Source: a virus (Duplodnaviria > Caudoviricetes). From it: a stretch of 64,000 nucleotides of DNA. A model generated the notes under the pieces. It was not told the origin of the DNA. It was given only the letters and a program-made list of their open reading frames with translations, and ran no database searches. Position numbers and translations under genes: made by a program. The stretch lies in the IMG/VR virus record IMGVR_UViG_3300024259_001623; one strand, written 5' to 3'. Positions within the stretch are counted from its first letter, which is position 1, and each line of letters opens with the position of its first letter. Positions 312 through 14,177 of the stretch are shown in pieces.

Positions 312-503
312 TCAGAATGGTACATGTTCTTTATAGGCTTCACATCCATCACATATAGGATATAAATCTGTTCTATTACATGACTCTGCTACTCTATCAC
401 TTTTATGTTGAAAAGTTAAATAAATTCCACAACTAGGACATGGTTTGAGTACCATATAATGCTTTTTTCTGCACCACTTACAATATAACTTTACAGATTT
501 CAT
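312..503 (-). CDS. Small Zn-finger hypothetical protein
   Basis: Three CxxC pairs; ATGA overlap with upstream gene. Confidence 0.6.
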   Translation of the reverse strand: MKSVKLYCKWCRKKHYMVLKPCPSCGIYLTFQHKSDRVAESCNRTDLYPICDGCEAYKEHVPF

Positions 504-931
504 TGATAATCCTCATCTTGAATAATACCGTATTTATGGAAATACCTTAATGGTCGCCATTTATGGTCATTCACATAGAAACCCCATTTATGTCGAGGTC
601 TGCCGAACAATAACAATGTCCAAGCACCTTCTTTAGGAATATCCAAATAATGTTTTTGTTCTGCTTTAGCTTTCCAAATGCTAATTGCTTTGACTTCTTT
701 AGCTCCATCAGGCGTTACATTCTTGTATTTACCCTTCAAAACAATAGAAATCAAATCACAAGAATGGTCATGAAAAAATCTTCTATCATCCGATTTAATC
801 CAATGATGCAATCTGATAGAGAAACCAAAGATAATCAGAGTCCATCTATATAGATAAGGGCAATCTTTTTTACCTAATGGTTCCTTCCATCTAAATTGAA
901 GCCATTTATTAAATTTCTTATAAGGTTTCAT
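500..931 (-). CDS. Cupin-like hypothetical protein
   Basis: LHHW...HDH...SIVLKGKY and AWTLLLFG are cupin-like; start moved to ATG 931, just after the tRNA-like RNA. Confidence 0.55.
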   Translation of the reverse strand: MKPYKKFNKWLQFRWKEPLGKKDCPYLYRWTLIIFGFSIRLHHWIKSDDRRFFHDHSCDLISIVLKGKYKNVTPDGAKEVKAISIWKAKAEQKHYLDIPKEGAWTLLLFGRPRHKWGFYVNDHKWRPLRYFHKYGIIQDEDYQ

Positions 932-933
932 AA

Positions 934-1059
934 TCAACGAAGTGGGAGTCGAACCACGCCTATAGATTCATATATATTTTCCCGGGAAATTATATATTCC
1001 AAAATAAACTCACACACTACGGCTTAGTTGCCGCTGCTCTACCGTTAAGCTATCCGCTG
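934..1059 (-). ncRNA. tRNA-like RNA with 55-nt insertion in T stem (51/52); atypical 6-nt anticodon loop
   Basis: Acceptor CAGCGGA/TTCGTTG, D arm GCTT-AACGGTA-GAGC, stem GCGGC/GCCGT; removing 956-1010 restores GTGGG-TTCGACT-CCCAC. Confidence 0.75.
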
Positions 1060-1079
1060 TTTTCATATAATCTATCCAA

Positions 1080-1295
1080 CTACTGCGACTCGTCCGGGTC
1101 GCCAGAAACAAGTACAGAGAACGAGTCCCTTCCGCACTTCGGGCATTTGGCCCACCACCACCCATCATCATCCGTAGATATGTCTTCTGCTGGGTTGGAT
1201 TCCTGCGGGAAGTAATTCCAATTGCCGTGTTCCTCGCACCGGAATATGGCTAATTTCGCATCTTCTATGCCCACCGCATTCTCTCCTTTTTCCAA
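1080..1295 (-). CDS. Small hypothetical protein (C-terminal CxxC)
   Basis: ORF track; probable GTG start after AAGGAG. Confidence 0.5.
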   Translation of the reverse strand: MEKGENAVGIEDAKLAIFRCEEHGNWNYFPQESNPAEDISTDDDGWWWAKCPKCGRDSFSVLVSGDPDESQ

Positions 1296-1329
1296 AGTGG
1301 AAACTTCTGTTTTCTATAAGTTTTCATAA

Positions 1330-1457
1330 TCAGTGGGGAGGGACTCGCACCTTTCTAGCCAACTACTAATACACTTTCCGGAAGCCATATTAGCGTTCTA
1401 CTAACTCTCGACCTTCCCCGTGTTACGGGGGACGCTCTGCTACTGAGCTACCCACTG
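1330..1457 (-). ncRNA. tRNA-like RNA with 55-nt insertion in T stem (51/52); 8-nt anticodon loop
   Basis: Acceptor CAGTGGG/CCCACTG, D arm GCTC..GAGC, stem TCCCC/GGGGA; removing 1352-1406 restores GAGGG-TGCGAGT-CCCTC. Confidence 0.75.
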
Positions 1458-1473
1458 GTTTACAATTTTATAA

Positions 1474-1627
1474 TCAACAGTGAGGGAATCGAACCTAAAC
1501 CTATTCTCATCAAAAAACGTTTCGAACCGCTTAATGACTACTAATAGATTCTCTACCTTCCACCATAATAGACGACTGCACCTTTCGCCATATTAGGTGG
1601 TTGCTCCGTCCAATGAGCTACCTGTCG
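1474..1627 (-). ncRNA. tRNA-like RNA with 55-nt T-stem insertion and extended anticodon arm
   Basis: Acceptor CGACAGG/ACTGTTG, D arm GCTC..GAGC; removing 1496-1550 restores GAGGG-TTCGATT-CCCTC; anticodon arm CCACC-TAATA...TATTA-T-GGTGG. Confidence 0.7.
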
Positions 1628-1640
1628 GTTTAAACTACTG

Positions 1641-2054
1641 TTACTGTTTGCTTCTTTTACTTATAATTAATCCTTTTAAACGATCACATACATGTTTTCT
1701 ACAATCATCACCAAAATCTTGGTCTAGATCATGGAAACCAGGTCTGGCGTTTTTTTTGCTCTTTTTAGCAGACTTTTTTCTTCTCGTTTCCCAACCTTTT
1801 TTAGAAGCTGCGCTACGTTTCTTACATTCAGCTTCCCATTTATCTTTGCATCTATTTACTGCTGACATCATATCATCTCCTAGAGTATCAGGCGTTAGCA
1901 ATGATATAGTAATCAATTCAACAGTACCATGTACTAATCCAGCAGCAAGAACATCTTTTGCTTCTTCGGTCATTGTATCAGTATCATATTCAACAATACT
2001 ATAGCCATCATAAGGACAATTTTCAGCTACCGTTATTTTCATCTTCTTCTCCAT
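1641..2054 (-). CDS. Hypothetical protein with basic low-complexity segment
   Basis: ORF track, co-oriented with neighbours. Confidence 0.6.
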   Translation of the reverse strand: MEKKMKITVAENCPYDGYSIVEYDTDTMTEEAKDVLAAGLVHGTVELITISLLTPDTLGDDMMSAVNRCKDKWEAECKKRSAASKKGWETRRKKSAKKSKKNARPGFHDLDQDFGDDCRKHVCDRLKGLIISKRSKQ

Positions 2055-2238
2055 CTTCGACTATTTGAAAATAAGAATCAGATAATCTATCTGATAATTT
2101 ATTTATAGTCTCAATATCTTTTTTCGTATTTTTAGGTCTTGCAGGATCATCTCTAAGAACTTGTAAAGCCCAAAGAATACAATTAAACTCATTTACAGTG
2201 AATTTCATTTCATTAACTCTTTTACTTGAGTAGTACAA
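2023..2238 (-). CDS. Hypothetical protein
   Basis: ORF track, packed operon. Confidence 0.5.
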   Translation of the reverse strand: MYYSSKRVNEMKFTVNEFNCILWALQVLRDDPARPKNTKKDIETINKLSDRLSDSYFQIVEDGEEDENNGS

Positions 2239-2399
2239 CTAGGATCAAGAATAAATTTCTGTTTGAATTTACCTCGTTTTATTTTTCGCGTCCAAAGTAA
2301 TCTTCGCATAAAATTTAAAATTGGTCTTCCTTTGAAAGTTACAACCGGCCAACCCAATTTATCTAGATACTGCATATTCTTTTCCTTATTGTCTATCAT
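2205..2399 (-). CDS. Hypothetical protein
   Basis: ORF track. Confidence 0.45.
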   Translation of the reverse strand: MIDNKEKNMQYLDKLGWPVVTFKGRPILNFMRRLLWTRKIKRGKFKQKFILDPSCTTQVKELMK

Positions 2400-3258
2400 A
2401 GTATTCTAGCCATTTTTTAATACATTTGTCAGAAACATTATATTTTCTACCAACAGCACAATAAGACATTGTTTCTAAGTCTTTTAAAAGCTGTTGCTTT
2501 GAAGGTCGTTCCACTTTTCTTTGATTTACTCTTGGAATATAATTTTTAGAAATATAATCAAAATATTCTTTTCGACTCCCATATTTTCTTTTCTTTTCTG
2601 GATAAAAAGTATATTTTGCTGCTCGATATCCTTTAGCATTTTTATTTTTTTTAAGATGTATAGTTTTTATTTCACATGGTTCTACATTTTGTTTCTTTCT
2701 GTTATCAATAAATTTAACAAGCTCTTTAAGAATTATTTTACTATTTTTCTTAAGTTCTTGCCAGCTTATACGAAAAACTTCCCATCCTTGAGATAACGCA
2801 TACTTATCTCTTTTTATATCTTTTTTAATAGTTTTATCATCTTTGAAGTGATGTTGACCATCTATTTCTATATCAATTTTTAATTCTAAAATAACAAAAT
2901 CGAATACGTATTGCTTGTTTTGAACTTTTTCTAAAATAGTAAAATTATCAAAATACTTAGTATTATTTATCAACGTTAAAAAATATTGCTCTGGATAAGT
3001 CCTATTTTCTTTATTTAAATTTACAGAAAGCCAACCTGGGTGCCGTCCTTCGGAATGAGCTTTTTTCATAGATTTAGAAATTTTTTGTGCATTAATTTGA
3101 GCGACCTCTTTACAACTTCTGCTACTTATAAGTTTATTTTTCTTAGCTTTTCTTATATAATGCATTCCTATTTGAAACTTTTCACAAATCTCTTTCCACG
3201 AGTGCCCTTCATTATAATATTTTTGTATTTTTTGCCAATTATAATTTTTGTTTTTCAT
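2386..3258 (-). CDS. Free-standing DUF559/Vsr-like endonuclease with HTH modules (putative homing endonuclease)
   Basis: YVFDF...IEIDGQHH...RD...GWEVFRISW motif; C-terminal HTH; ATG at 3258 follows GGAG. Confidence 0.8.
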   Translation of the reverse strand: MKNKNYNWQKIQKYYNEGHSWKEICEKFQIGMHYIRKAKKNKLISSRSCKEVAQINAQKISKSMKKAHSEGRHPGWLSVNLNKENRTYPEQYFLTLINNTKYFDNFTILEKVQNKQYVFDFVILELKIDIEIDGQHHFKDDKTIKKDIKRDKYALSQGWEVFRISWQELKKNSKIILKELVKFIDNRKKQNVEPCEIKTIHLKKNKNAKGYRAAKYTFYPEKKRKYGSRKEYFDYISKNYIPRVNQRKVERPSKQQLLKDLETMSYCAVGRKYNVSDKCIKKWLEYYDRQ

Positions 3259-3321
3259 TTCGAACTCCAATCTTTTTTATTACATTCTATTGAAGTTCGA
3301 GAAAACCTTCTTAAAAATAAC

Positions 3322-3398
3322 TATTCCTGGCTGGACTCGAACCAGCATAATCATCCTGCTTCGTAGGCAGGGGCCTTATCCAATTAGACTACAGGAAC
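3322..3398 (-). tRNA. tRNA-Arg(ACG)
   Basis: Cloverleaf; CCTGC-CTACGAA-GCAGG; T loop TTCGAGT. Confidence 0.9.
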
Positions 3399-3437
3399 AT
3401 ATAGCCGGGTGTTTTAATCCAATTATACTATAGGGAC

Positions 3438-3707
3438 TTATGGAACATAAAAGACAGGACGACCATCAACATCATCAAACTCCATTACCGCATCTTTCAT
3501 TTCAAAAGGTCTTTCAACAGTCTCACAAATAGGCTTTGAAATCTTCTCGCCTTCCCGACTAACAACTTCAAAAATCTCATCAGTCTCAACAACATCATAA
3601 CCATACGTAGGCAATTCCAAACAATGCTTAATAGAATTCAATATCTTTACTGCCACTTCCTCAGTAACTTCAGGATTGAATACTAGAACCGCTGATAACC
3701 TTTTCAT
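3438..3707 (-). CDS. Hypothetical protein
   Basis: ORF track; start adjusted to MKRLSAV. Confidence 0.55.
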   Translation of the reverse strand: MKRLSAVLVFNPEVTEEVAVKILNSIKHCLELPTYGYDVVETDEIFEVVSREGEKISKPICETVERPFEMKDAVMEFDDVDGRPVFYVP

Positions 3708-3921
3708 CGTTGATTTCCTTTTGAACAGCATCAAATTTACAAGTATGACAAACCAATTTGCCATTATGAACTTTCATGTAGCTACGATGTTCCCATTTTC
3801 CGCACTCAGGACAGGGAAGTTGACCACAGTGAATCTTCAAAGCATTGTCCATGCCTCTCTTAATAGGTTTTATACTCAGACAAACTATAAATAAACCTAA
3901 TGCTATTAAAAAACCAGTCAT
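3670..3921 (-). CDS. Small protein with N-terminal TM helix and Zn ribbon
   Basis: Hydrophobic N-terminus; CPECG...CHTC. Confidence 0.55.
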   Translation of the reverse strand: MTGFLIALGLFIVCLSIKPIKRGMDNALKIHCGQLPCPECGKWEHRSYMKVHNGKLVCHTCKFDAVQKEINDEKVISGSSIQS

Positions 3922-3945
3922 TATATAATCCTTTATATTATGTAA

Positions 3946-4018
3946 TAGGAGCAGCAGGACTTGAACCTGCGGCCGGTCGCTTATCGGGCGACTGCTCTGC
4001 CATCTGAGCTTTGCTCCC
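3946..4018 (-). tRNA. tRNA-Ile(GAT)
   Basis: GTCGC-CCGATAA-GCGAC (C33 instead of U33); acceptor GGGAGCA/TGCTCCT. Confidence 0.85.
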
Positions 4019-4023
4019 TTATG

Positions 4024-4218
4024 CTATAACAAATACTTATCATCGACATCTTCAACTTTCCAAGAAAATTGCCAATTGGCACCTGAAACAGAACATTGTT
4101 TTGATTCATGATTAGTTAATACACTCTCTTTGAGCCTATCTTCATATTCATTAAAAAGTTTTCTTAAACAATCGTATCTATTTTTTCCATAAACTTCGAC
4201 AATTAACTTTTTTGCCAT
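4024..4218 (-). CDS. Hypothetical protein
   Basis: ORF track with AGGAAG RBS. Confidence 0.55.
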   Translation of the reverse strand: MAKKLIVEVYGKNRYDCLRKLFNEYEDRLKESVLTNHESKQCSVSGANWQFSWKVEDVDDKYLL

Positions 4219-4232
4219 TTTTTCTTCCTTAT

Positions 4233-4439
4233 TTAATCGCTAAACATATTTAATTGGAAAGTATGTTCTTTACCACATGCAGGACAAATAAAACACGCCT
4301 CTGTAAAAATGCAAGAGTCCTCGTCTAAATACATTTCTATATTGTCAGAACTTAATGAACAATTAACCCAACGAATTTTGTTAGAACACCGAAAAGCGAT
4401 AATCAACGATGTACTTTGAGATTTAATCTCTCTTATCAT
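4233..4439 (-). CDS. Small Zn-ribbon protein (paralog of 12005 and 12234)
   Basis: F-x-C ... CPACGKEH motif. Confidence 0.55.
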   Translation of the reverse strand: MIREIKSQSTSLIIAFRCSNKIRWVNCSLSSDNIEMYLDEDSCIFTEACFICPACGKEHTFQLNMFSD

Positions 4440-4455
4440 TTTTTACTTCCTTTAA

Positions 4456-4527
4456 TGGGCCGACCCGGGATCGAACCGGGGACCCCGCCTTTTCAAGGCG
4501 GTGCTTTACCTCTTAAGCTCTCAACCC
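4456..4527 (-). tRNA. tRNA-Phe(GAA)
   Basis: CCGCC-TTGAAAA-GGCGG; acceptor GGGTTGA/TCGGCCC. Confidence 0.9.
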
Positions 4528-4590
4528 AGTTTTTAATGAAAAAAGCTCTACTAATGGCCCTTCACATACATATTACTTCAAAAACATTAA

Positions 4591-4663
4591 TGGGATGAGA
4601 TGGAATCGAACCAACTTCTGGCGATCTTCAGTCGCCCGCTTGGACCACGTAAGCTATCATCCC
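4591..4663 (-). tRNA. tRNA-Phe(GAA), second divergent copy
   Basis: GGCGA-CTGAAGA-TCGCC; acceptor GGGATGA/TCATCCC. Confidence 0.88.
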
Positions 4664-4703
4664 TTCTATATTTAAGACCCAAAAGCTCTACCTAATAACT
4701 GAG

Positions 4704-4940
4704 CTAACGGCCCGTATATATTGTTAAAATATCTGTCTCTTGCGATACATCATCAATCAAAACCCAATCAGCCAATTCAACTTTTTCGCTACCACAAAAT
4801 ACCCAATCTACTATTTCACCATCAAAACAAGTCATATGATCTTCGTATATTAGAAAATAAACAAATTTTGTAGTAACTTGAAAAACGACTCTCATAATAT
4901 TATCATGCACATAAGCATGACCTATTAATGCTTGACTCAT
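4704..4940 (-). CDS. Hypothetical protein
   Basis: ORF track. Confidence 0.5.
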   Translation of the reverse strand: MSQALIGHAYVHDNIMRVVFQVTTKFVYFLIYEDHMTCFDGEIVDWVFCGSEKVELADWVLIDDVSQETDILTIYTGR

Positions 4941-4944
4941 TTTA

Positions 4945-5268
4945 TTATTCCTCTCGGTTAAAAAATCTAATCAATTTATAAGTCTTAATTTCTTTTACTT
5001 CTACAATAATCATTTCATCCAAGTAACTTTGAAGACCATTCCCTCGATAATCTTTCTCACTCTCTTTTATAAAAGAAATTAAATGAGATAATGCTTTCTT
5101 AGCTTCCTTTGAAGTATTGAAAAACTTAGCTTCATCAGGTGTCAATGCGAACCTTTCTCCATAGCACAAATATCTATGCTTCCAACAGGGAACGAGTTCT
5201 TCTTCACTATAACCAAGAAATAAAGATTCTCTTTGAGAATTATAAATTACATATTTATAAGCATCCAT
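4945..5268 (-). CDS. Hypothetical protein (F-x-T/K-x-EA-x-x-AL paralog family)
   Basis: AKFFNTSKEAKKAL motif shared with 5268 and 5806. Confidence 0.6.
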   Translation of the reverse strand: MDAYKYVIYNSQRESLFLGYSEEELVPCWKHRYLCYGERFALTPDEAKFFNTSKEAKKALSHLISFIKESEKDYRGNGLQSYLDEMIIVEVKEIKTYKLIRFFNREE

Positions 5269-5576
5269 TACTCTTTCTCTTTCTTAATAGCAAAACAACT
5301 AACGCAATTTACTGGCATAACGCTCAGATTATAATATACTTTTACATCGCCACTGTCCTTGGTATATGCCTTAAAAATCTTCGACAGGGCTGTTTCTGCT
5401 TCTTCTTTTGTACCAAAGATTTTTGCGCTGGAAATTAAAACTTGTTCGTCATCTTCTGTTTCTCTAAGATAACTTCCGAACCATTGTCCCATTGGATCAT
5501 CTTCTGACCATTCAGAAAGAAAACTATCTTCTTCTTCATCTACAATTACAAATCCATCATAACTTACTTCTTGCAT
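5268..5576 (-). CDS. Hypothetical protein (same paralog family)
   Basis: AKIFGTKEEAETAL. Confidence 0.6.
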   Translation of the reverse strand: MQEVSYDGFVIVDEEEDSFLSEWSEDDPMGQWFGSYLRETEDDEQVLISSAKIFGTKEEAETALSKIFKAYTKDSGDVKVYYNLSVMPVNCVSCFAIKKEKE

Positions 5577-5588
5577 ATTATTATCCTT

Positions 5589-5798
5589 TTATCTTCTTTC
5601 GCCGCATTTATCACAGAAATCGCATAATTTTAGTTCGCCGCTATCAGATGACCTTAACTCTTTCCAATTATGATCACATTGATCACCAGTATGATCATAT
5701 TGACCACCAAGAATAGTTGTATTCTTTTCCATTTCCATAACTATTCTATGAGATTCTTGAATAGACTCTTTCGTAATATATTTTTTTTGTTGTGACAT
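5589..5798 (-). CDS. Small hypothetical protein, C-terminal Zn knuckle
   Basis: CDHNW...CDFCDKCG; start adjusted to MSQQKK. Confidence 0.5.
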   Translation of the reverse strand: MSQQKKYITKESIQESHRIVMEMEKNTTILGGQYDHTGDQCDHNWKELRSSDSGELKLCDFCDKCGERR

Positions 5799-5805
5799 AT
5801 TAATA

Positions 5806-6207
5806 TTATCTACTAAGATATTCGTAATGATATACTTTAACCATTTTGCGAATAAAATAAGTTGCATCAAGATGTTTCTGATTACAAGCTTTAAGATCTT
5901 TTTTATAACGACATTGATAACGTCTTCCAGCCTCTTCCAATGTCATCTTCTCTTCTTCTCTCTTCTCGTCATGAATTTTTTTCAAGGTATCTTTTGCTTC
6001 TTGTTCGTCAGTAAATATTACAGTTTTAGAAGTTAGATAAGCTCTATTACAATCTACATGAGAACCTTGACCAGGGCCACCGTCGCCACTCCAATCAGAT
6101 TTCCCATCTCCACTATTATAAACATCAAAACCTATGAAACAATTTCCGCCAGAATAACTTATTCTCTTAATGGCATAGTAAACCTTATCTTCATCGTTAT
6201 CGGACAT
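5806..6207 (-). CDS. Hypothetical protein (same paralog family)
   Basis: VIFTDEQEAKDTL. Confidence 0.6.
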   Translation of the reverse strand: MSDNDEDKVYYAIKRISYSGGNCFIGFDVYNSGDGKSDWSGDGGPGQGSHVDCNRAYLTSKTVIFTDEQEAKDTLKKIHDEKREEEKMTLEEAGRRYQCRYKKDLKACNQKHLDATYFIRKMVKVYHYEYLSR

Positions 6208-6227
6208 TTTTCATCTCCTTAAAGAAA

Positions 6228-6267
6228 GCCGGTAGCAGGAATCGAACCCGCAACATCTGACTTACGA
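6228..6267 (-). pseudogene. Orphan 3' half of a tRNA-Thr(CGT)-like gene
   Basis: T-CGT-AA-GTCAG-ATGTT-GCGGG-TTCGATT-CCTGC-TACCGGC directly after the HNH stop; no 5' half nearby. Confidence 0.7.
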
Positions 6268-6272
6268 TTCAT

Positions 6273-6833
6273 TCAATAACTTTGACCATTTTTATATCTA
6301 TTTCGTCTTTCATGGCGCCCATTACCTCTATTTTTTCCTTTATACGTAGGTAAAAGCATATCACAGTTACCACAAATCAAACGTAAATTATTCACTCTAT
6401 CATCATAAGGATTTCCATTTTCATGATCTAAAACTAATGGCATGGGTTTTCCGCACCACTCATCTCCACCACAGATTTCACATTTGTTTCCATTTTCTTC
6501 TTTTAAATATTTTTTTATTGTCGGCGACGAGCTATTAATAAATTTTTTATTCTTTTTAACTTCTTTTTTGTATTCTTTCCATTGGTATTCCTGGTGACAA
6601 GAACAAGAACAGTATTTAGCATTTATTGTTTTTCTCTGACAATTAATACATTTCTTAGTAGCGTATTTCCCAGTTGAAAAATTTCTAGTCACACCTTTAT
6701 TGTTATGAGTCGCGGAACAAGAATGAGAACAAAATTTATTTTGTTTTTTATTATAAGGTATATCTTCTTCACATTCTTTACATTTTTTAGGATTTTTATC
6801 GTATTCTTCTTTTGTTTTTTGATGTTTTTTCAT
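6273..6833 (-). CDS. HNH endonuclease (putative homing endonuclease)
   Basis: CEICG...LVLDHENGNPYDDRVNNLRLICGNC; N-terminal Zn fingers. Confidence 0.88.
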   Translation of the reverse strand: MKKHQKTKEEYDKNPKKCKECEEDIPYNKKQNKFCSHSCSATHNNKGVTRNFSTGKYATKKCINCQRKTINAKYCSCSCHQEYQWKEYKKEVKKNKKFINSSSPTIKKYLKEENGNKCEICGGDEWCGKPMPLVLDHENGNPYDDRVNNLRLICGNCDMLLPTYKGKNRGNGRHERRNRYKNGQSY

Positions 6834-6917
6834 AACTCGAACTCCAAAGTAGTATAAATTTTACTGTCTACTTTAGTATTCAAGTCCTATACTAAAATTC
6901 CTTTTATTTTTCTAAAA

Positions 6918-6989
6918 AGCTCCTGCCCAGGGTCGAACTGGAATTTCATGATTACAAGTCAAGTGTTCTACCAATTGAACTACAGAAGC
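6918..6989 (-). tRNA. tRNA-Thr(TGT)
   Basis: CTTGA-CTTGTAA-TCATG; acceptor GCTTCTG/CAGGAGC. Confidence 0.85.
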
Positions 6990-6994
6990 AAATG

Positions 6995-7411
6995 AAGGTT
7001 TGTGTTCAATTTGCTAAAGGGCCGCGAATACAAAACCTTAAAAACCATATCGGCCTCTAAAATAGCGCTAGCATTAGTATTAGCATTAAGAGGGCTATTT
7101 TAAATCATTATGCTCCTACGCTCTTACATAGGTTCCCTATGGCTAATGATTAACGGTCGCCGTGTTATGACATTGCCACAAGTCTCTGCTTGATTTACTA
7201 GTATCTAAAGCAGGCCCAAACAAATTCATGCTTGGCACAGCGTTATTTTTTTGATTGGAGTAGCTTTACCACTTATGTTTAACAAGAAGTTTTCGCCGTG
7301 GGAGCCTACGGAGTACCGTATACTTACTTGGGCATTGACTACTCATTCAAGTTAGGTTTAAGTATCTACATCGTCCGTTTGATCTACTATTTTAATATAG
7401 CAGTCCAATCA
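6995..7411 (-). ncRNA. Candidate large structured non-coding RNA (~420 nt)
   Basis: No ORF of 60 aa or more; about 12 nested helices, e.g. 7404-7411/7252-7259, 7236-7242/7158-7164, 7144-7151/7103-7110; between two tRNAs; strand inferred from context. Confidence 0.6.
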
Positions 7412-7414
7412 TAA

Positions 7415-7487
7415 TAGGCGATACAGGGCTTGAACCTGTGACCTTCTGCGTGTAAAGCAGACGTTCTCCCAACTGAACTAATCGCCT
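7415..7487 (-). tRNA. tRNA-Val(TAC)
   Basis: TCTGC-TTTACAC-GCAGA; acceptor AGGCGAT/ATCGCCT. Confidence 0.9.
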
Positions 7488-7495
7488 GTACTTTT

Positions 7496-7894
7496 TTACA
7501 AATTATCCTTATATTTTTCAGCTATATTTTTTTGTGCCGCAAAGACTATACCTTTATCTACTTCTGGAGTAGGGGAAAAAGGAATCTCCCAAGCCAAAAC
7601 CTCTCCATATTGATCAACATAACAAACTTCGACTCTATTCATTTTGACATCAGATACATAACTAAATGCAATTCTTGTATATGTTGCTCTACAAGAAGGA
7701 GCATTATGACATTTTACTCTAGCTCTAAACTCATATTGATGCATCTCTTTTGCTCTTGCTCTCAAAGCAGTGATATGCTTATCAATAAAAGCTTTTATTT
7801 TATCTGCTTTTTGCTCTTTTTTCTCTCTAACCTCTCTCTCAGCCATAAAGATTTCATAGTCTAAAACATCAATTTTTTGCATCATATTATTCAT
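7496..7894 (-). CDS. Hypothetical protein, tandem paralog family (W-x-IPF-S motif) copy 1
   Basis: LAWEIPFS...AAQKNIAEKY; start adjusted to MNNMMQK. Confidence 0.7.
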   Translation of the reverse strand: MNNMMQKIDVLDYEIFMAEREVREKKEQKADKIKAFIDKHITALRARAKEMHQYEFRARVKCHNAPSCRATYTRIAFSYVSDVKMNRVEVCYVDQYGEVLAWEIPFSPTPEVDKGIVFAAQKNIAEKYKDNL

Positions 7895-7895
7895 T

Positions 7896-8348
7896 TTATC
7901 CCTTCCATTTCTCATAATGTTCAACGATAAACTTTTTAGCAGCACTCAGTTTCTTCTCATCTTCTTCTGGATCGAGAGAAAAAGGAATAGCCCAAGACAG
8001 TCTACCACCTATTTCATAATTCTCCATATATTGAACTTGTACTCCACCTTCTATTACATAAGATACAGAACCGAAATTGCTTCGTGGATAGAAACTATAT
8101 ACTGTATCATCATTTGTACGACAACTTGCTCGTTCTGCCGCTTCAAACTGGAACAACTCTTCATTTCTTGCCTGTAATAGTTCCATGTTATCTTCAACGA
8201 AGAAATCGAACTTCAAATCTGCTTCTCTTTTAAGCCTTCTGGCGTCTTTTTCAAGACGCTTGGCCGTATCATTCATATCCAGAATTTCTTTCATCTGACC
8301 ATTCAAATCTTCAATTACTGTCGTATTATTATCCATCGCTTTCTCCAA
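7896..8348 (-). CDS. Tandem paralog family copy 2
   Basis: LSWAIPFSLDPEEDEKKL. Confidence 0.7.
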   Translation of the reverse strand: MEKAMDNNTTVIEDLNGQMKEILDMNDTAKRLEKDARRLKREADLKFDFFVEDNMELLQARNEELFQFEAAERASCRTNDDTVYSFYPRSNFGSVSYVIEGGVQVQYMENYEIGGRLSWAIPFSLDPEEDEKKLSAAKKFIVEHYEKWKG

Positions 8349-8802
8349 ATTTTTCTTTCAACTTCAAATACTCTCTGTATTCTCTGTCTCTTTTTTCTTT
8401 TTCTTTAGATTCTTTCTGTTCATTATAAAAATCAATCAATTCTCGCGTTGCTTTCTCAAGCAAAACTTTATCTTTTTCTTCATCAACGGCAAACGGAATA
8501 GTCCATTGCTCCCAATTGTCGTCATAATAATCACTACAATCCTCAACTTCCAAATGATCAGCATAAATCGCAAGAACAGTTCCAAAAACTGAACTTTTAT
8601 ATTGCCAATGACGAGGATAGCCACCAGACAGTTCTAATTCCAAATCATACAATTCTCTTGTTCTTGCAGCAATCCTGTCAAAATATGTATTCAAAAAATC
8701 TTGACATATCTCTCTATGGGCCGCTTCTAATTCCGAGACTTTCTTTTTAGCTTCCTTTAGCTTTTCGCCAACTTCGATAAATTCTTCGATAAAATTTCTC
8801 AT
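8329..8802 (-). CDS. Tandem paralog family copy 3
   Basis: QWTIPFAVDEEKDKVLL. Confidence 0.7.
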   Translation of the reverse strand: MRNFIEEFIEVGEKLKEAKKKVSELEAAHREICQDFLNTYFDRIAARTRELYDLELELSGGYPRHWQYKSSVFGTVLAIYADHLEVEDCSDYYDDNWEQWTIPFAVDEEKDKVLLEKATRELIDFYNEQKESKEKEKRDREYREYLKLKEKFGESDG

Positions 8803-9189
8803 TTATTTTTCCTCATATACTGCTTGAATCTTGTTCTTTGTCTCTTCCAGAATCTTTTTGTCTTCTTCTTCATCCTCAACAAAAGGAATCCAGCACAAAT
8901 GATCATCATACCTGCCGGTATTTTTATGTACTAGAATCCGATCCTCTAATATGTCAACTATAGTATCGAAATAAAGATCACGATACATACCAACATATTG
9001 TACTGGAGATTCTTTCCATGTTGTCATCTCAAAACAATACAATTCCATAAGTCTTTCGTAAATTCTACCACTATATTTTGAATGAAAAGAATTAATAAAA
9101 GCATCTCTAGACTGTTTCAACTTTTTTATATTCTTTTGATTTTCTTGAAAATCTGCTATATCCATTTTAGACTCCATAATGTTCTTCAA
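8803..9189 (-). CDS. Tandem paralog family copy 4
   Basis: LCWIPFVEDEEEDKKIL. Confidence 0.7.
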   Translation of the reverse strand: MKNIMESKMDIADFQENQKNIKKLKQSRDAFINSFHSKYSGRIYERLMELYCFEMTTWKESPVQYVGMYRDLYFDTIVDILEDRILVHKNTGRYDDHLCWIPFVEDEEEDKKILEETKNKIQAVYEEK

Positions 9190-9544
9190 CTTCTTTTTTG
9201 GCTTCTTCTAAAAGAACCTCATCTTTTTCTTCATCAACGGAAAAAGGTAAAACCCACATATATTTCAATGGAGTATCCAGACCGCAATATGACACTTTCA
9301 CACTATCTTCTGATATATCTTCAATTTTTAAAAACACGTTTTTGAAATATATGTAATGTTCATCTCTCCAAGAGATTTTGGCTTGTGAAGAACAGTCAGC
9401 CTCAAACTCATATAATTCTTCCGCTATTTTAAGAAGCCTAGTTCCGTACAAATTATAAAAGTCTCTAACAAACTGAGATTGTTCAGCCCGCAACTGTTCT
9501 ATCTTTTTCTTATTCTCTGCAAAAACTTTAACATCCATTTTCAT
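9167..9544 (-). CDS. Tandem paralog family copy 5
   Basis: MWVLPFSVDEEKDEVLL; start adjusted to MKMDVK because the upstream part overlaps a tRNA-like RNA. Confidence 0.7.
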   Translation of the reverse strand: MKMDVKVFAENKKKIEQLRAEQSQFVRDFYNLYGTRLLKIAEELYEFEADCSSQAKISWRDEHYIYFKNVFLKIEDISEDSVKVSYCGLDTPLKYMWVLPFSVDEEKDEVLLEEAKKEVEEHYGV

Positions 9545-9562
9545 CTTTCCTATTTTAGAAAT

Positions 9563-9682
9563 AGGGCAAGGCTGGACTTGAACCAGCATCTCAGGCCACA
9601 TAAGCATTTGAAGAGTTCTTATGGTTTCTAAAAAACATTCTTATTGTTGTCAGCCCCCGCTCTACCGTTAAGCTACCTGCCC
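9563..9682 (-). ncRNA. tRNA-like RNA with 55-nt region replacing the anticodon loop
   Basis: Acceptor GGGCAGG/CTTGCCC, D arm GCTT-AACGGTA-GAGC, intact T arm GCTGG-TTCAAGT-CCAGC; 9598-9652 lies between the anticodon-stem strands. Confidence 0.7.
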
Positions 9683-9756
9683 AAATATCAACAACCTTTA
9701 CAGCATCCTCTTTTGCTGCGTCCTCATCAGGGAAAAACACCGGACTAAATATAAAA

Positions 9757-9830
9757 TAGGGCGAGAGGGATTCGAACCCTCAACTTTTCGGTTAAAAGCC
9801 GAATACTCTGATCCATTGAGTTACCGCCCC
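9757..9830 (-). tRNA. tRNA-Lys(TTT)
   Basis: TTCGG-CTTTTAA-CCGAA. Confidence 0.92.
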
Positions 9831-9836
9831 GTTAAA

Positions 9837-10109
9837 CTATTCTACTGGAACCCATTTGGTTACAGTAACTTCTTTCTTTACAACTTCTACTGGTTCAGGA
9901 TCATCATAATCAAACGGTCCTTCATCCTGAGTCTCAGTTGCTCCTACGCTCCAACATAAAGAATAATGCTTACCAGAAGGCTTATGTTTGAATACGCCCT
10001 CATAATGAATAGACCATCGACTAGTATCTATAACCTCTCCCTCTATACGTTCCCAATCATCATGATCATTATAAACAATATCAGCACCTTCTACTCTTGT
10101 TAATTTCAT
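9837..10109 (-). CDS. Conserved phage hypothetical protein
   Basis: DTSRWSIHYEGVF...GATETQD pattern typical of small phage proteins. Confidence 0.65.
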   Translation of the reverse strand: MKLTRVEGADIVYNDHDDWERIEGEVIDTSRWSIHYEGVFKHKPSGKHYSLCWSVGATETQDEGPFDYDDPEPVEVVKKEVTVTKWVPVE

Positions 10110-10351
10110 AATATTCTTCCTTCTCTCTTAAAAATCTCTTCCATTCTCAACGCATTGGCATAAGCATCTTCTGGTTCATATCCATGAATCAGATTTGCTT
10201 TAATCCAACCTTCAAAACGAAGTCTATCTCTGTCTCTTGCTTCCCTTTTGATCTTCATAGCCTCAAATCTACAAGTACTATGATAACCTTTTTCCTTATC
10301 ATTTGCCTCATAAAGCTCTATACCGCAAACAAAACATTCTTCTTTGGACAT
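10106..10351 (-). CDS. Hypothetical protein
   Basis: ORF track, ATGA overlap. Confidence 0.55.
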   Translation of the reverse strand: MSKEECFVCGIELYEANDKEKGYHSTCRFEAMKIKREARDRDRLRFEGWIKANLIHGYEPEDAYANALRMEEIFKREGRIL

Positions 10352-10363
10352 TTTTCTTCTTCC

Positions 10364-10585
10364 TTATTCTAAATCTATGCCAAATTCTTTTTTAACAGCA
10401 TCCTTAAACATCTGTACGACCTCTGGATGCAAATCTTTTCTATCTTGTAACTCAGACATAGTATAAAGCCCAAACCTGTCACAAATGGATTTTTTCAAAT
10501 CTTTCTTAAACTTTCTAACATCCACTTTGTGGTCTATTCTAACTTCATGCTCTAATATACGATCCAAAGTTGCTTTAGAAAACAT
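10364..10585 (-). CDS. Hypothetical protein
   Basis: ORF track. Confidence 0.55.
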   Translation of the reverse strand: MFSKATLDRILEHEVRIDHKVDVRKFKKDLKKSICDRFGLYTMSELQDRKDLHPEVVQMFKDAVKKEFGIDLE

Positions 10586-10594
10586 TATAACCCC

Positions 10595-10825
10595 TTAACT
10601 ATTAAAACTATTTACTCTATCTTGGATATCCTGCTGAAACCTCTTTAAATCACTTTCCTCTCCAGAAACAGTTACATAGAACATGGAATCAAGCCATCCC
10701 TTATCCTCATCAACTGTTATTTGAACAGAATGATAAGTAGATGTGTAATATAATAGGCTTCTTACTTGGCGTCTTAGGATAATACCTGCTGACATCTGAA
10801 AACGCAATGTTGCTGTATCACTCAT
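10595..10825 (-). CDS. Hypothetical protein
   Basis: ORF track. Confidence 0.55.
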   Translation of the reverse strand: MSDTATLRFQMSAGIILRRQVRSLLYYTSTYHSVQITVDEDKGWLDSMFYVTVSGEESDLKRFQQDIQDRVNSFNS

Positions 10826-11229
10826 TATTTCTTCTTTCCTATTCCTAGAACATCCTTCCCATACTTTTCAATAGCGTCTGATAACATCCAATCATAATCA
10901 AATACGAAATTATTATCTTCTACCCATTGATTACAATAATTTCGCCAAATCGAAAGAACAGTAAAATCATCTAAACCGAATGTTTCATCATAAGCCCAAC
11001 AATCATCATCTTCCCCAAAACGCATTTTAATTTCTGTTCCCCAGCCTTCTCCACCGAAGAAAAGATCATCATCCTTAATTAATATAAGACGACGTTGACA
11101 GAACATATCGGCGGTGTAACTGCTCCATACAGGCCAACCGATTACAGGTTGTACCTTCTTGACATATTCGTCTATCGCTTCTTTAATGGTTTGATCTTCT
11201 ATACTACTCAAAATAAACTCCTTCTTCAA
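10825..11229 (-). CDS. Hypothetical protein
   Basis: ORF track, ATGA overlap with HNH. Confidence 0.6.
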   Translation of the reverse strand: MKKEFILSSIEDQTIKEAIDEYVKKVQPVIGWPVWSSYTADMFCQRRLILIKDDDLFFGGEGWGTEIKMRFGEDDDCWAYDETFGLDDFTVLSIWRNYCNQWVEDNNFVFDYDWMLSDAIEKYGKDVLGIGKKK

Positions 11230-11777
11230 TCAATTAACTTCAACTTTCTTGCACGTTTTCTAACAGCATTGTCTGTTACTCCCAATATTTTTCCGATTTT
11301 AACAAAAGAATATTGCTCTATTAATGCTTTTAAATCTACTTCTTCCCATTTAACTTTTCTAGATTTTCTTGTGGCACATAATCTACTACAAGTTTTTTGT
11401 TTCTTTATCTTCATATTACCGCATACAGGACATTTATCCGTTTCCGGTTTTTTCTTTTCTTTATAAGTAACAAATAACTCATTAAACTTTTTTGCATTTT
11501 TAGGAATTTTTCTTTCGCCATAATGTATTTCTGCATGACAATTCCCACAAACTAAAACACATTTTCTTAACTCTTTTATGATTTTGCCCCAACTCTTAGG
11601 ATTAGCTTTAATCTTGCCAAAAGAGAATTCTTTTTCATTTGGGTCTAGATGATGTAGATGCAATGCTGCATGACATTTATTATATCCACAACAAACACAT
11701 TTAGACCCCATTGACTTAACAATACGCTCTTTTGTGTGCTTACGCCATCTCTGAACCTTTTCAGCAGGAGAAAACAT
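11226..11777 (-). CDS. HNH endonuclease with C-terminal HTH (putative homing endonuclease)
   Basis: CVCCG...LHLHHLDP...CVLVCGNCHAEIH. Confidence 0.85.
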   Translation of the reverse strand: MFSPAEKVQRWRKHTKERIVKSMGSKCVCCGYNKCHAALHLHHLDPNEKEFSFGKIKANPKSWGKIIKELRKCVLVCGNCHAEIHYGERKIPKNAKKFNELFVTYKEKKKPETDKCPVCGNMKIKKQKTCSRLCATRKSRKVKWEEVDLKALIEQYSFVKIGKILGVTDNAVRKRARKLKLID

Positions 11778-11854
11778 GTTTAACCTCCATATATAAAATT
11801 AACAATACTAGTTAACTCTATATATCGAGATTTGCATCAAAAACCTTTACTTAC

Positions 11855-11927
11855 CTCCTGCGGCAAGCTCTGCCCTTGCAACTTCCGGTTTAACAGACCG
11901 GCGTTCTACTAATTGAACTACGCAGGA
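11855..11927 (-). tRNA. tRNA-Asn(GTT) with atypical T loop
   Basis: CCGGT-CTGTTAA-ACCGG; acceptor TCCTGCG/CGCAGGA; T arm GCAAG-GGCAGAG-CTTGC. Confidence 0.8.
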
Positions 11928-11930
11928 ATC

Positions 11931-11961
11931 TACAATACAAACTATTTACAATACAAACTAT
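11931..11961. repeat. 15-bp direct repeat TACAATACAAACTAT x2
   Basis: Copies at 11931-11945 and 11947-11961. Confidence 0.85.
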
Positions 11962-11962
11962 A

Positions 11963-11992
11963 TCAATCGCTCTACCACTCGACTACCCAGGA
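11963..11992 (-). pseudogene. Orphan 5' half of a tRNA
   Basis: TCCTGGG-TA-GTCG-AGTGGTA-GAGC-G followed by non-tRNA sequence. Confidence 0.5.
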
Positions 11993-12004
11993 ATTTACAA
12001 TACG

Positions 12005-12214
12005 TTACGCCATATTAAAATTAAGTCTAACATCATGAAGTTTATTACAACCAGTACACATAATTTCAACAGAAGCTTCACTTACATATACATCATCATA
12101 GAATCCTTCTTCTTCAATGCATATTTCATTATTTTTGACTTCAACTGTTTTCATAGAATTATCATTAGGACAAATAAAACTGACAACTAATTTCTCGCAC
12201 TTTATTGTTTTCAT
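12005..12214 (-). CDS. Small Zn-ribbon protein
   Basis: SFICPN...CTGCNKLH. Confidence 0.6.
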   Translation of the reverse strand: MKTIKCEKLVVSFICPNDNSMKTVEVKNNEICIEEEGFYDDVYVSEASVEIMCTGCNKLHDVRLNFNMA

Positions 12215-12233
12215 AAGATTTTCCTTCGATTCA

Positions 12234-12488
12234 TTACCAATTAATCTCTACTTCATGTGTTTCGCCGCAAGGACAAGAGATGTTAGTAGTTATACGATAA
12301 ATAGAATCATCTTCGGCATAATGAAATTCTACTTCCTTATTGTATAACTTTTCTTTTAACGCTTCTTGACTTATTGACGTTGATCTAATGCAATCATCTT
12401 TTTCTGTAGCATTAGGGCATTTAAATGCAACAAAAAATGATACAAGTGTCGCTTTTGCTTTTTTCATAAAAATTACCTCAACTCTCAA
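12234..12488 (-). CDS. Small Zn-ribbon protein
   Basis: AFKCPN...SCPCGETH. Confidence 0.6.
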   Translation of the reverse strand: MRVEVIFMKKAKATLVSFFVAFKCPNATEKDDCIRSTSISQEALKEKLYNKEVEFHYAEDDSIYRITTNISCPCGETHEVEINW

Positions 12489-12524
12489 AAATTTTGCTCA
12501 TCGCATCAGGGACATCCTGATTAA

Positions 12525-12550
12525 CAGGGTAAGAAGGATTTGAACCTATA
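12525..12550 (-). pseudogene. Degenerate tRNA 3' fragment (T arm plus acceptor strand)
   Basis: ATAGG-TTCAAAT-CCTTC-TTACCCT-G just after the HNH stop. Confidence 0.45.
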
Positions 12551-12563
12551 CTATAACATTCAT

Positions 12564-13265
12564 TCATCTTACCCATTTTCTAATTGCATTGTCACTAACT
12601 CCATATTTTCTAGCGATTGCACAAATCGACATAGTTTCCATCATTTTTTGTAATTCTTCTATAGATGGTCTTTTTACTTTTCTTCGTTTCAAACCATTTG
12701 CTTTAGCTGAACATTCTTTACATCTTTTCGATTGTAAAGAAATTTTTTTGCCACATTCGCAAAAAATAATTTTCTTTTTGTAGATAACATTTCGCCCAGC
12801 GAATGTAGAAGTTTGACTATTACAGTTAGGACATAAAAACCTTAAATTTTTTATTCTATGATCATTACTAATTCCATTAATATGATCTAGAACTAAAACT
12901 AATGGTTTTTCTTTCCAAACTGAAGATTGTTCACAAATAGAACATTCATATTTTAATATTTTTTCTTCGACCAATCTTTTCTTTAAAGAACCGCGATTAT
13001 AAGTAGAATTCTTAACTAAAACTTTATCTAGAGGTAATTTTTCTTTATTTTTAAAGCCCCTTACCCTAATTTCTTCTGATCTTTTTCGTAGTTGAGTTAA
13101 ATCTATATTGTCAAACTCACATCTGTCTCTTAATGTTTTATAATTCCCACCTTTGTTAGCTAAATCAAAAAATTGTAAAACGTCGGAAAAAGTGTTTCTT
13201 TTTGATATTACATCAACTAAAGTTTCTTTATTTATTTTCCAAATAGGACTGCGATGTTTTTTCAT
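12564..13265 (-). CDS. HNH endonuclease with C-terminal HTH (putative homing endonuclease)
   Basis: CSICE...LVLDHINGISNDHRIKNLRFLCPNC. Confidence 0.88.
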   Translation of the reverse strand: MKKHRSPIWKINKETLVDVISKRNTFSDVLQFFDLANKGGNYKTLRDRCEFDNIDLTQLRKRSEEIRVRGFKNKEKLPLDKVLVKNSTYNRGSLKKRLVEEKILKYECSICEQSSVWKEKPLVLVLDHINGISNDHRIKNLRFLCPNCNSQTSTFAGRNVIYKKKIIFCECGKKISLQSKRCKECSAKANGLKRRKVKRPSIEELQKMMETMSICAIARKYGVSDNAIRKWVR

Positions 13266-13341
13266 AGTGGTACTCCTTTACCACTATATCGGATTAATTG
13301 GAAACATGTCTATTCTTTATTTTTATATGTTTCCAATTAAA

Positions 13342-13415
13342 CAAGGCAGGCTGGACTCGAACCAGCAACCGAGAGAATCAAAATCTCCCATTCTATCCAA
13401 TTGAACTACTGCCTT
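13342..13415 (-). tRNA. tRNA-Gln(TTG)
   Basis: GGAGA-TTTTGAT-TCTCT; acceptor AAGGCAG/CTGCCTT, G73. Confidence 0.85.
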
Positions 13416-13422
13416 ATATAGT

Positions 13423-13528
13423 ATTTACGGGGAGGATTCAAACCTAATCAACTATAAGCGATCAACCTTACAGCGACTCCATCTATCCCTTAAAGAGAGA
13501 TCACTTTATCTTTTTAAGCTACCGTAAT
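13423..13528 (-). ncRNA. tRNA-Lys(TTT)-like RNA with 33-nt hairpin insertion in T stem (51/52)
   Basis: ATCTC-TCTTTAA-GGGAT; removing 13445-13477 restores GGAGG-TTTGAAT-CCTCC. Confidence 0.65.
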
Positions 13529-13533
13529 ACTAA

Positions 13534-13606
13534 TACCCCCAGCAGGGATCGAACCTGCGACCTTTTGGGTAAGAACCAAATGCTCTACCAATTGAGCTAT
13601 GGAGGC
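13534..13606 (-). tRNA. tRNA-Lys(CTT)
   Basis: TTTGG-TTCTTAC-CCAAA. Confidence 0.9.
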
Positions 13607-13613
13607 GTAAAAA

Positions 13614-13787
13614 AGAGAACATGGTAGGATTTTAACCTACAAACTTTTGGGCCTTGATCAAGAGCAACCAAGACTGTACCCAAATTGTTGCCATTGCGGA
13701 CTAGTAACCGTAAGCACGTCTGCCTTCAATGGCCTCGTCCAAACCATTTCTGACGGTCTACACTTAACTTTGTGTAGCATATTCTCT
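13614..13787 (-). ncRNA. 174-nt structured RNA with tRNA-like ends (10-bp terminal stem plus T-arm-like hairpin)
   Basis: AGAGAATATG/CATGTTCTCT; CTACAC/GTGTAG; GTAGG-TTAAAAT-CCTAC; TTTGGG/CCCAAA; lies inside the tRNA array. Confidence 0.6.
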
Positions 13788-13789
13788 AA

Positions 13790-13863
13790 TACGTCTGAGA
13801 GGATTCGAACCTCCAACAACCGCTTTAGAAGAGCGGGACTCTGATCCATTGAGCTACAGACGC
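13790..13863 (-). tRNA. tRNA-Arg(TCT)
   Basis: CCGCT-CTTCTAA-AGCGG. Confidence 0.92.
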
Positions 13864-13872
13864 AAATATAAA

Positions 13873-13947: not shown

Positions 13948-13952
13948 ATAAA

Positions 13953-14024: not shown

Positions 14025-14030
14025 ATAAAA

Positions 14031-14114: not shown

Positions 14115-14177
14115 GTTTTATTACATCCAAGTATATAATTGTCAAAAAGCTCTGAAAACCCTCAACGGTTTTCTAAG

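Follow-up and report, generated by a model that had tools for sequence, protein, structure and literature searches.

Does a hairpin that interrupts the T stem of a transfer RNA (tRNA)-like gene leave the RNA, as an intron would, or does it stay in place as an additional arm? The question is raised by a stretch of 64,000 nucleotides (the window) from the virus record IMGVR_UViG_3300024259_001623 (Duplodnaviria; Caudoviricetes), which belongs to a marine huge phage. Three tRNA-like genes on its minus strand, here called U1 (1059..934, 126 nt), U2 (1457..1330, 128 nt) and U3 (1627..1474, 154 nt), each carry exactly 55 nt between positions 51 and 52 of the T stem. A sequence-only reading of the locus had offered three explanations, namely a non-canonical intron, a domain added to a decoy tRNA, or a new class of non-coding RNA (ncRNA). 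Our analysis indicates that the insert is probably a working extra arm and not an intron, and that U1, U2 and U3 are members of a large, apparently undescribed family of tRNA look-alikes. The more specific proposal that the hairpin is a retained arm, possibly serving RNA-RNA kissing, is the one we favour, and we hold it tentatively, at a little short of an even chance.

All three genes have normal D arms and, as the sequence-only reading had described, C1-G72, A73, a TTAT trailer and a non-canonical anticodon region. U1 is built from the acceptor stem CAGCGGA/TTCGTTG, the D arm GCTT-AACGGTA-GAGC, an anticodon stem GCGGC/GCCGT closing the 6-nt loop AACTAA (AACUAA in the RNA), the variable loop AGTGT and the T arm GTG[956-1010]GG-TTCGACT-CCCAC. 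U2 has the acceptor stem CAGTGGG/CCCACTG, an anticodon loop CGUAACAC that in the standard register is 8 nt long (CGTAACAC), the variable loop AGGTC and the T arm GAG[1352-1406]GG-TGCGAGT-CCCTC; G55 is present in its T loop, and G18-G19 are absent. The acceptor stem of U3, CGACAGG/ACTGTTG, pairs at 6/7 positions, the variable loop is AGGTA and the T arm GAG[1496-1550]GG-TTCGATT-CCCTC, and a 42-nt hairpin stands where the anticodon loop should be. The minimum-energy fold of full-length U3 (z -2.85) contains the acceptor, the D arm, this long anticodon-arm hairpin and the T-stem hairpin. The split of the T stem is in exactly the same register in 3/3 genes (the insert follows the anticodon stem, the 5-nt variable loop and 3 bp of the T stem, and precedes the remaining 2 bp), and deletion of the inserts restores the 5-bp stems GTG..GG/CCCAC, GAG..GG/CCCTC and GAG..GG/CCCTC, both of which confirm what had been claimed. 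The acceptor stems differ at 5/7 positions with pairing preserved, and the pattern GGTTCGANTCCCNCNNNGTTGATTAT has three matches in the 64 kb, which are U1, U2 and U3, and none in shuffles.

The inserts themselves (956..1010, 1352..1406 and 1496..1550, all on the minus strand) are identical to each other at only 17-20/55 positions (31-36%), which is no higher than their identity to an unrelated 55-nt segment. What they have in common is their length, their symmetry axis and an invariant central CG. At the apex of the arm U1 has the 12-nt palindrome TTTCCCGGGAAA (978..989), U2 the palindrome TTCCGGAA (1376..1383) and U3 the sequence GGTTCGAAAC (1519..1528), which is identical to the apex of hairpin A in at least nine related phages. 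Two of these apexes contain CCGG, as had been noticed; the trait is not limited to two of them, since all three are palindromic (TTTCCCGGGAAA, TTCCGGAA and TTCGAA) and centred on the same insert position. In a gapless alignment of the 85-nt 3′ parts of the three genes, 86.4% of the cells pair, compared with 38-59% when the partners are slid by 1-3 columns, and 14/22 pairs are changed on both sides, compared with 0-5. This covariation among three paralogues mostly restates that each insert is a full hairpin of equal length, which is nevertheless not expected for neutral sequence that has diverged so far, and it bears out the view that structure in the inserts is under constraint and that the genes form one paralogous family. 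The short motifs said to be shared between units are also real: U2 and U3 have 9-10-mers in common, when only 5.6% of shuffles share even one 9-mer. The anticodon-arm hairpin of U3 (1559..1601, minus strand) is a collapsed copy of a U2-type arm (CTAATATGGC...TATTA) and aligns with the T-stem hairpin of U2 with a local score of 27.5, against a shuffle maximum of 27.0; one gene therefore holds the module at both hot spots, in a locus that has recombined. No further copy of any insert was found in the window or in 168 fetched loci.

Taking the inserts out does not yield decoding tRNAs, as the anticodon loops are then 6 nt, 8 nt or absent and U2 still carries G55. None of the three genes was called by ARAGORN in unedited form. 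After deletion of the 55 nt, the program called U1 (anticodon undetermined) and U2 (Val, aac), but U3 was called only when another 24 nt had been taken from its anticodon arm. The Rfam tRNA model (RF00005) scores 27.5 bits on U1, below its gathering score of 29 bits and with a 60-nt gap in the T arm, and does not match U2 or U3 at E <= 10. As they stand, the three RNAs thus fall outside the definition of a canonical tRNA, whose anticodon loop has 7 nt, with U33 and purine 37, and whose 5-bp T stem is contiguous.

In order to place U1, U2 and U3 among relatives, we started from the cupin-like gene (phrog_4786; 500..931, minus strand), to which the synteny of the entire RNA family is anchored, and collected 30 IMG/VR loci and 80 metagenome loci (~110 in all, labelled L001 etc.). 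The IMG/VR contigs that carry relatives of the cupin gene reach 676 kb. In most anchored loci a tRNA-shaped gene with C1-G72 and A73 stands just upstream of the cupin start codon, and these loci, from marine, sediment, peat and wetland metagenomes, contain at least 56-58 distinct family members of 75 to ~230 nt. Their plan consists of an acceptor stem, a GCTC...GAGC D arm, a 5-bp anticodon stem enclosing a structured insert, an AGGUC variable loop and a T arm. A single-stranded NAC-A/U-N segment, in which AAC is commonest and UAC and GAC also occur, abuts the anticodon stem on the 5′ side of its 3′ strand. We define the family by C1-G72, A73 and these NAC "anticodon" bases. In relatives of ~147 nt the anticodon stem encloses two hairpins followed by a NACAY bulge, and the folds of these RNAs have z values of -1.0 to -3.9, with 5/7 at or below -2.5. 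U1, U2 and U3 share C1-G72, A73 and the GCTC/GAGC-type D arm with this family, lie directly upstream of the cupin gene and carry a covarying hairpin capped by a self-complementary loop core. In place of the NAC segment U2 has AACAC and U1 has AACUAA, the latter comparable with AACUU of L096 and L102; U3 has no such motif. The acceptor stem of U2 is identical to that of a 150-nt RNA of L105. Rfam has no model for the family, the tRNA model alone matching (38.5 bits on L090), and no description of it was found in the literature searched.

The family keeps A35, C36, A37 and A73. Of these, A35, C36 and A73 are the main identity elements for valyl-tRNA synthetase (ValRS), and A37 is also among the elements that the enzyme uses; we have therefore named the family valine-type, and its members may be charged with valine. 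If these bases are taken together with the Val (aac) call of U2 after deletion, the three genes could be read as working valine tRNAs (anticodon AAC) which decode with the arm in place as a tolerated or regulatory appendage. We regard this as very improbable, given loops of 6 nt, 8 nt or none, the lack of U55 and of D-loop G18-G19 in U2, a canonical tRNA-Val(UAC) already encoded in the window at 7415-7487, and a branch at 51/52, on the face of the T stem that EF-Tu binds. A derivation of U1 from an amber-suppressor tRNA was also considered, on account of D and T arms that resemble those of tRNA(CUA) of L014 and L016, and was set aside as secondary, the family-wide AAC motif explaining the loop. 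Genes for tRNA(CUA), one or two in number, do lie directly upstream of a family member in L014:2556-2709, L016:5762-5915 and L007:2342-2414, which hints at stop-codon reassignment in those phages.

Comparison with the relatives indicates that the 55-nt insert is the conserved hairpin module of this family, re-sited into the T stem in this lineage. Most family members have, normally in the anticodon domain, a covarying hairpin with an 8-nt loop G-N6-A in which N6 is always self-complementary. The apex of the U3 insert, stem-G-GUUCGAAA-C-stem, is that of the first hairpin in the anticodon domain of L090, L096, L099, L102, L104, L105, L120, L121 and L159; U3 thus has the same apex as the relatives (GGUUCGAAAC), whereas U1 and U2 have palindromic octamers instead. 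Sixteen hairpins (relatives and U1-U3) were aligned on the loop centre. N6 is UUCGAA, UGUACA (L089), UACGUA (L094) or UUGCAA (L163), and fully palindromic octamers are found in L098 (AUGCGCAU), U2 (UUCCGGAA) and U1 (UCCCGGGA). In this alignment the three loop "pairs" are complementary in 48/48 cells, with changes on both sides, and the adjoining eight stem pairs are 84% paired, with a covariation of 0.744 against at most 0.244 for slid controls. A palindromic hexamer lies in a hairpin loop in 40/58 family RNAs, compared with a mean of 14.5 (maximum 18) in shuffles. Adjacent as they are, the innermost loop bases cannot pair inside a single hairpin, so that the conserved self-complementarity speaks for the pairing of two molecules or for a symmetric ligand. 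In many members the loop of the second hairpin contains UCUAGA or ACUAGU. Such palindromic second loops were seen, as UCUAGA, in L099:2962-3107, L105:1366-1515, L097, L119, L124, L140 and L091 and, as ACUAGU, in L102, and each two-hairpin relative of ~147 nt would bear two different self-complementary loops.

On the sense strand G·U mismatches outnumber A·C mismatches by 26 to 4 (p = 6e-5), an excess which shows that selection acts on the RNA and not on a palindrome in double-stranded DNA. The same bias, and stem covariation without sequence conservation, disfavour a double-stranded DNA operator or a cruciform. They also bear on the possibility that U1, U2 and U3 are redundant, drifting duplicates and the hairpin a selfish or neutral palindromic insertion without function for the phage, which would enter and leave hot spots in tRNA genes and leave footprints of 1-8 nt at 51/52 and 32/33. 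The locus has certainly been duplicated and recombined, as seen from the 9-10-mers that units share, from U3, which is a chimera, and from a remnant of a cupin start that follows U2. Homing-type endonuclease genes are nearby (DUF559, 2386-3270; HNH, 12564-13265), U1 and U3 have no usable anticodon loop, and a 2-nt GT slip was seen in U1 in one run. However, there are no other copies in the window or the 168 fetched loci, and the existing copies are only 31-36% identical, unlike those of active miniature elements. Moreover, four helices and the arm have all been kept by compensatory changes, the mismatches carry the RNA-level bias just described, and the apex motif is invariant in at least ten phages at a fixed structural position, so that we consider a functionless insertion improbable. 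A miniature inverted-repeat transposable element or a repetitive extragenic palindromic (REP)-like element was rejected on the same two counts, copy number and strand-biased mismatches.

The site of the insertion can also be followed through the family. The T stem is interrupted at 51/52 by 1-8 nt in ~20/56 unique members (in L001 by 1 nt, at 52/53), the register being set in most of them by an AGGUC-type variable loop directly before the bulge. The interruptions are GTG-C-GG in L105, L118 and L134, GGA-T-GG in L003, L154 and L162, GGG-C-GG in L006, AGG-TTT-GG in L164, ACA-TTT-GG in L007, L014 and L016, ACG-TACAA-GG in L136, GTG-TTTA-GG in L023, GCG-TT-GG in L026 and GTG-GCAAAAAC-GG in L144. 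As a control, 29/34 ARAGORN-confirmed tRNAs from the same loci, all outside the C1-G72/A73 class, have a contiguous T stem; the other five comprise one real interruption (in L014, a member of the same family with C73) and four single mismatches. The site is a family trait, and the length of 55 nt is peculiar to this phage. The covariance model R1, built on the T arm and the hairpin together, scores 86-89 bits on U1-U3, and found nothing else above 25 bits in 24 IMG/VR loci, 80 metagenome loci and five whole huge-phage contigs. The best outside match, in L031 (24 bits), was set aside because it does not form a clean hairpin, although its ends pair (z -1.6), and 48 matches to the pattern AGGTNGAG-N40-70-GGTTCGANTCCCTC in IMG/VR were false on examination (tandem tRNAs, class II tRNAs or unrelated sequence). 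The sequence-only reading had seen a sign of constraint in the fixed site and fixed length, the conservation of which was to be examined in huge phages. As a rule for the family they do not hold, as no other large insert at 51/52 exists in the ~110 loci, the five contigs or the IMG/VR pattern scan, and relatives have instead a bulge of 1-8 nt there and the homologous hairpin in the anticodon domain.

These bulges are also relevant to the view that the hairpin is cut out of the RNA as an intervening sequence. Excision could proceed through some phage endonuclease, or through host RNase III acting on the ~25-bp arm. A phage Rnl2-type RNA ligase would then close the nick that remains in the T stem; otherwise the RNA would stay in two pieces, like rRNA that has lost an intervening sequence. 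The role of the self-complementary tip would be to accommodate a nuclease that is itself symmetric (dimeric), or to draw two precursors together. An excised insert would explain why deletion restores a 5-bp T stem in exact register in 3/3 genes, and why the homologous domain of the relatives sits where its removal yields a canonical anticodon loop with U33. The occurrence of the module at two scaffold sites recalls transposing archaeal tRNA introns. Against excision, RNase III cuts within a duplex and leaves a 2-nt stagger; it does not cut flush at a junction. The products of excision would still be non-canonical, bulges of 1-8 nt at 51/52 in the relatives cannot be spliced, and 55 nt is far below the size of a group I or II intron. 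A bulge-helix-bulge (BHB) motif cannot be drawn, in agreement with the sequence-only reading: on inspection, the splice junctions lack the required helices, the start of exon 2 (GGTTCGA or GGTGCGA) having no complement at the end of exon 1. Three helices meet at the junction, and the 3′ splice site is not adjacent to any helix between the two exons. A cmscan search of 800-1800 returned, at E <= 10, the tRNA model and three chance matches, with no Rfam ribozyme or intron model among them, which disposes of group I and II introns and of small self-cleaving ribozymes. No RNA-processing enzyme, including EndA, was found with Pfam among the 37 open reading frames (ORFs) of the window that were scanned. 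Unexplained introns do occur in the tRNA genes of Lak megaphages (PMC6784885), and jumbo phages commonly encode Rnl2 or RtcB ligases (PMC7824862). On balance we find removal of the hairpin doubtful, and among the three explanations offered at the outset the intron is the least favoured, as non-canonical loops persist after deletion and the small bulges cannot be introns, whereas an added domain or a new ncRNA class fits best.

We favour a retained arm for four reasons: what is conserved in the module are features of its own, the scaffolds have been kept by compensatory change despite being unable to decode, relatives tolerate at 51/52 a bulge that cannot be spliced, and a three-way junction with a continuous 61-65 strand fits a stacked acceptor and T helix. 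In the mechanism that we envisage, U1, U2 and U3, as three tandem paralogues of non-decoding valine-type tRNA-like RNAs, would be transcribed within a long minus-strand tRNA array. Their ends would be matured by RNase P and RNase Z like those of the neighbouring tRNAs, because they have a tRNA-like acceptor and T arm, no encoded CCA and the same T-rich trailer. The RNAs are expected to fold into the tRNA L-shape, with the module grafted into the 51/52 bulge of the family, so that the 3′ strand of the T stem (61-65) would stay continuous at a three-way junction and an arm of ~25 bp would project sideways. Its loop would most likely pair with the same loop of a second molecule, forming a kissing-loop homodimer, or bind a symmetric partner, and multimers could arise where a second palindromic hairpin exists. 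Pairs 49-65, 50-64 and 51-63 have an established role in EF-Tu binding, for which reason a branched or bulged T stem should keep the RNA off EF-Tu and the ribosome. Such an RNA may act as a decoy, as a scaffold or as a partner of the adjacent cupin enzyme.

Several points weigh against a retained arm. That it stays in the RNA is inferred from sequence, and the perfect 5-bp T stem given by the 55-nt deletion is found in every one of the three genes. Many relatives regain a canonical 7-nt loop when the insert in the anticodon domain is taken away (C|UAACAU, U|UAACAU, G|UAACAU and CU|AACAA), which is what an intron would do. The covariation among the three paralogues is in part a restatement of their being hairpins of equal length. 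G-N6-A is a better kissing loop than those of U1 and U2, in which U-A pairs close CCGG. Finally, the large arm at 51/52 is known from one phage population only, within which the sole variation available is the 2-nt slip at 1017 in one low-depth contig.

As regards that population, the stretch 900-1700 is matched in seawater metagenomes of 20 studies, and the runs listed for the locus include none of RNA. Four further ENA/JGI assemblies are 100% identical across the locus, and contigs of four other seawater runs are identical save for the slip at 1017. The low-depth contig, from run X12, is without 2 nt of a GTGTGTG run that forms the variable loop and the start of the T stem of U1, and represents either a slip variant or an assembly error. 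The window holds 16 tRNA genes, all on the minus strand (15 called by ARAGORN, with 11855-11927 added by Rfam), in an array from ~900 to 14350, and the majority of ORFs are likewise on the minus strand. A scan of 400-4800 for promoters and terminators returned fewer promoter-like sites than in shuffles and no terminators.

The ATG of the cupin gene lies 3 nt past the discriminator base of U1. In many of the ~110 related loci this distance is 3-12 nt with no Shine-Dalgarno sequence between, and tRNA-type 3′ processing ahead of the gene would give a nearly leaderless mRNA. U2 is followed, at 1326, by a remnant of a cupin start of 20 codons (ATGAAAACTTATAG, compared with ATGAAACCTTATAAG after U1), and hence the unit made up of the RNA gene and the 5′ end of the cupin gene has been tandemly duplicated. 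Between U2 and U1, and preceded by this remnant, is a small, GC-richer ORF (1080..1295, minus strand), which encodes Cys/His pairs (CEEH...CPKC) and probably starts with the GTG at 1274, behind AAGGAG. No relatives were found for the 137-aa ORF upstream. Pfam and PHROGs identified among the neighbouring ORFs only the cupin (phrog_4786), DUF559, HNH and a methyltransferase. The DUF559/Vsr-like endonuclease gene, which has a helix-turn-helix domain (2386-3270, minus strand), and the HNH endonuclease gene (12564-13265, minus strand) both lie within the tRNA array and look homing-type.

Other tRNA-like oddities were seen in this phage. A tRNA-like gene with G1-C72 at 9563-9682 (minus strand; Rfam tRNA, 44.1 bits) has 56 nt replacing the anticodon loop, and an exact second copy of 22 nt of this insert stands at 17200-17221, next to a perfect inverted repeat of 14 bp (17189-17228). 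Between tRNA-Gln and tRNA-Lys lies a tRNA-shaped element of 106 nt (13423-13528, minus strand), called neither by ARAGORN nor by Rfam; its T loop is TTTGAAT, its ends pair and its middle is structured (z -1.8). Large inserts also occur in further tRNA-shaped genes in L086:6582-8720, from the same phage and 4-6 kb before the start of the window (161 nt at 7688-7848, 117 nt at 8028-8144 and 99 nt at 8621-8719); none of these has C1-G72/A73 or a split T stem.

Among known systems, the dimerisation initiation site (DIS) of human immunodeficiency virus 1 (HIV-1) is a hairpin loop of 8-9 nt with a self-complementary core of 6 nt between purines, and the core varies by lineage. The phage module likewise keeps a self-complementary core while its sequence varies between lineages; it differs in sitting on a tRNA scaffold in DNA phages, where dimerisation is proposed from sequence. 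Non-coding RNAs that resemble tRNA include YrlA and other Y RNAs, the valylatable tRNA-like structure of turnip yellow mosaic virus (TYMV) and the species 1 and 2 RNAs of phage T4. U1, U2 and U3 share with these the non-decoding mimicry of tRNA, with TYMV the valine identity bases and with T4 the setting in a phage tRNA cluster. Unlike Y RNAs they end at an acceptor stem and not at a Ro-binding stem, and they bear an extra arm off the T stem; a Y RNA or YrlA identity was rejected because no Rfam model matches and the ends form a tRNA acceptor stem. Intervening sequences of rRNA also extend a conserved helix of a stable RNA by a hairpin, which RNase III removes. They differ in being cut from 23S rRNA without re-ligation, and we know of nothing like them in tRNA-like RNAs.

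YrlA and Ro60 have been reported in jumbo phages (PMC7824862). The tRNA genes of Lak megaphages contain "enigmatic" introns which are short, conserved and not of group I, and for which no removal mechanism is known (Devoto et al. 2019, PMC6784885). There as here a short sequence interrupts tRNA genes of huge phages, but the Lak introns lie in the anticodon loop of otherwise normal tRNAs, whereas the present insert lies in the T stem of a non-canonical scaffold and is a covarying hairpin with a palindromic tip. Archaeal tRNA introns of Thermoproteales are similarly short, occur at unusual positions and several per gene, and are apparently mobile (PMC4033280, PMC4090602). Those introns form a BHB and need EndA; here a BHB is impossible and the host is a bacterium. 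According to PMC4033280, tRNA genes of bacteria are uniform in structure and are otherwise known to contain only group I and II introns, at 37/38. In the literature searched we found no description of an arm branching inside the T stem, nor of a tRNA scaffold with covarying hairpins and obligatorily self-complementary loops.

For the family as a whole we can suggest, as a speculative and rather unlikely extension, that huge phages make self-associating tRNA-shaped RNAs which would join by homotypic kissing, through lineage-specific palindromic loops of one or two hairpins, into dimers or higher assemblies. These would act with the adjacent cupin enzyme, or as a decoy or scaffold in a tRNA-centred conflict between phage and host, and in the present phage three palindromes (UUCGAA, UUCCGGAA and UUUCCCGGGAAA) would give three non-crossing homodimers. 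Were the arm removed after all, the locus would reveal a protein-dependent route of tRNA splicing in phages, of a kind unknown in bacteria. If the arm is retained, U1, U2 and U3 would belong to a new class of tRNA mimics in phages, one that carries its own interface for another RNA or for a symmetric protein.

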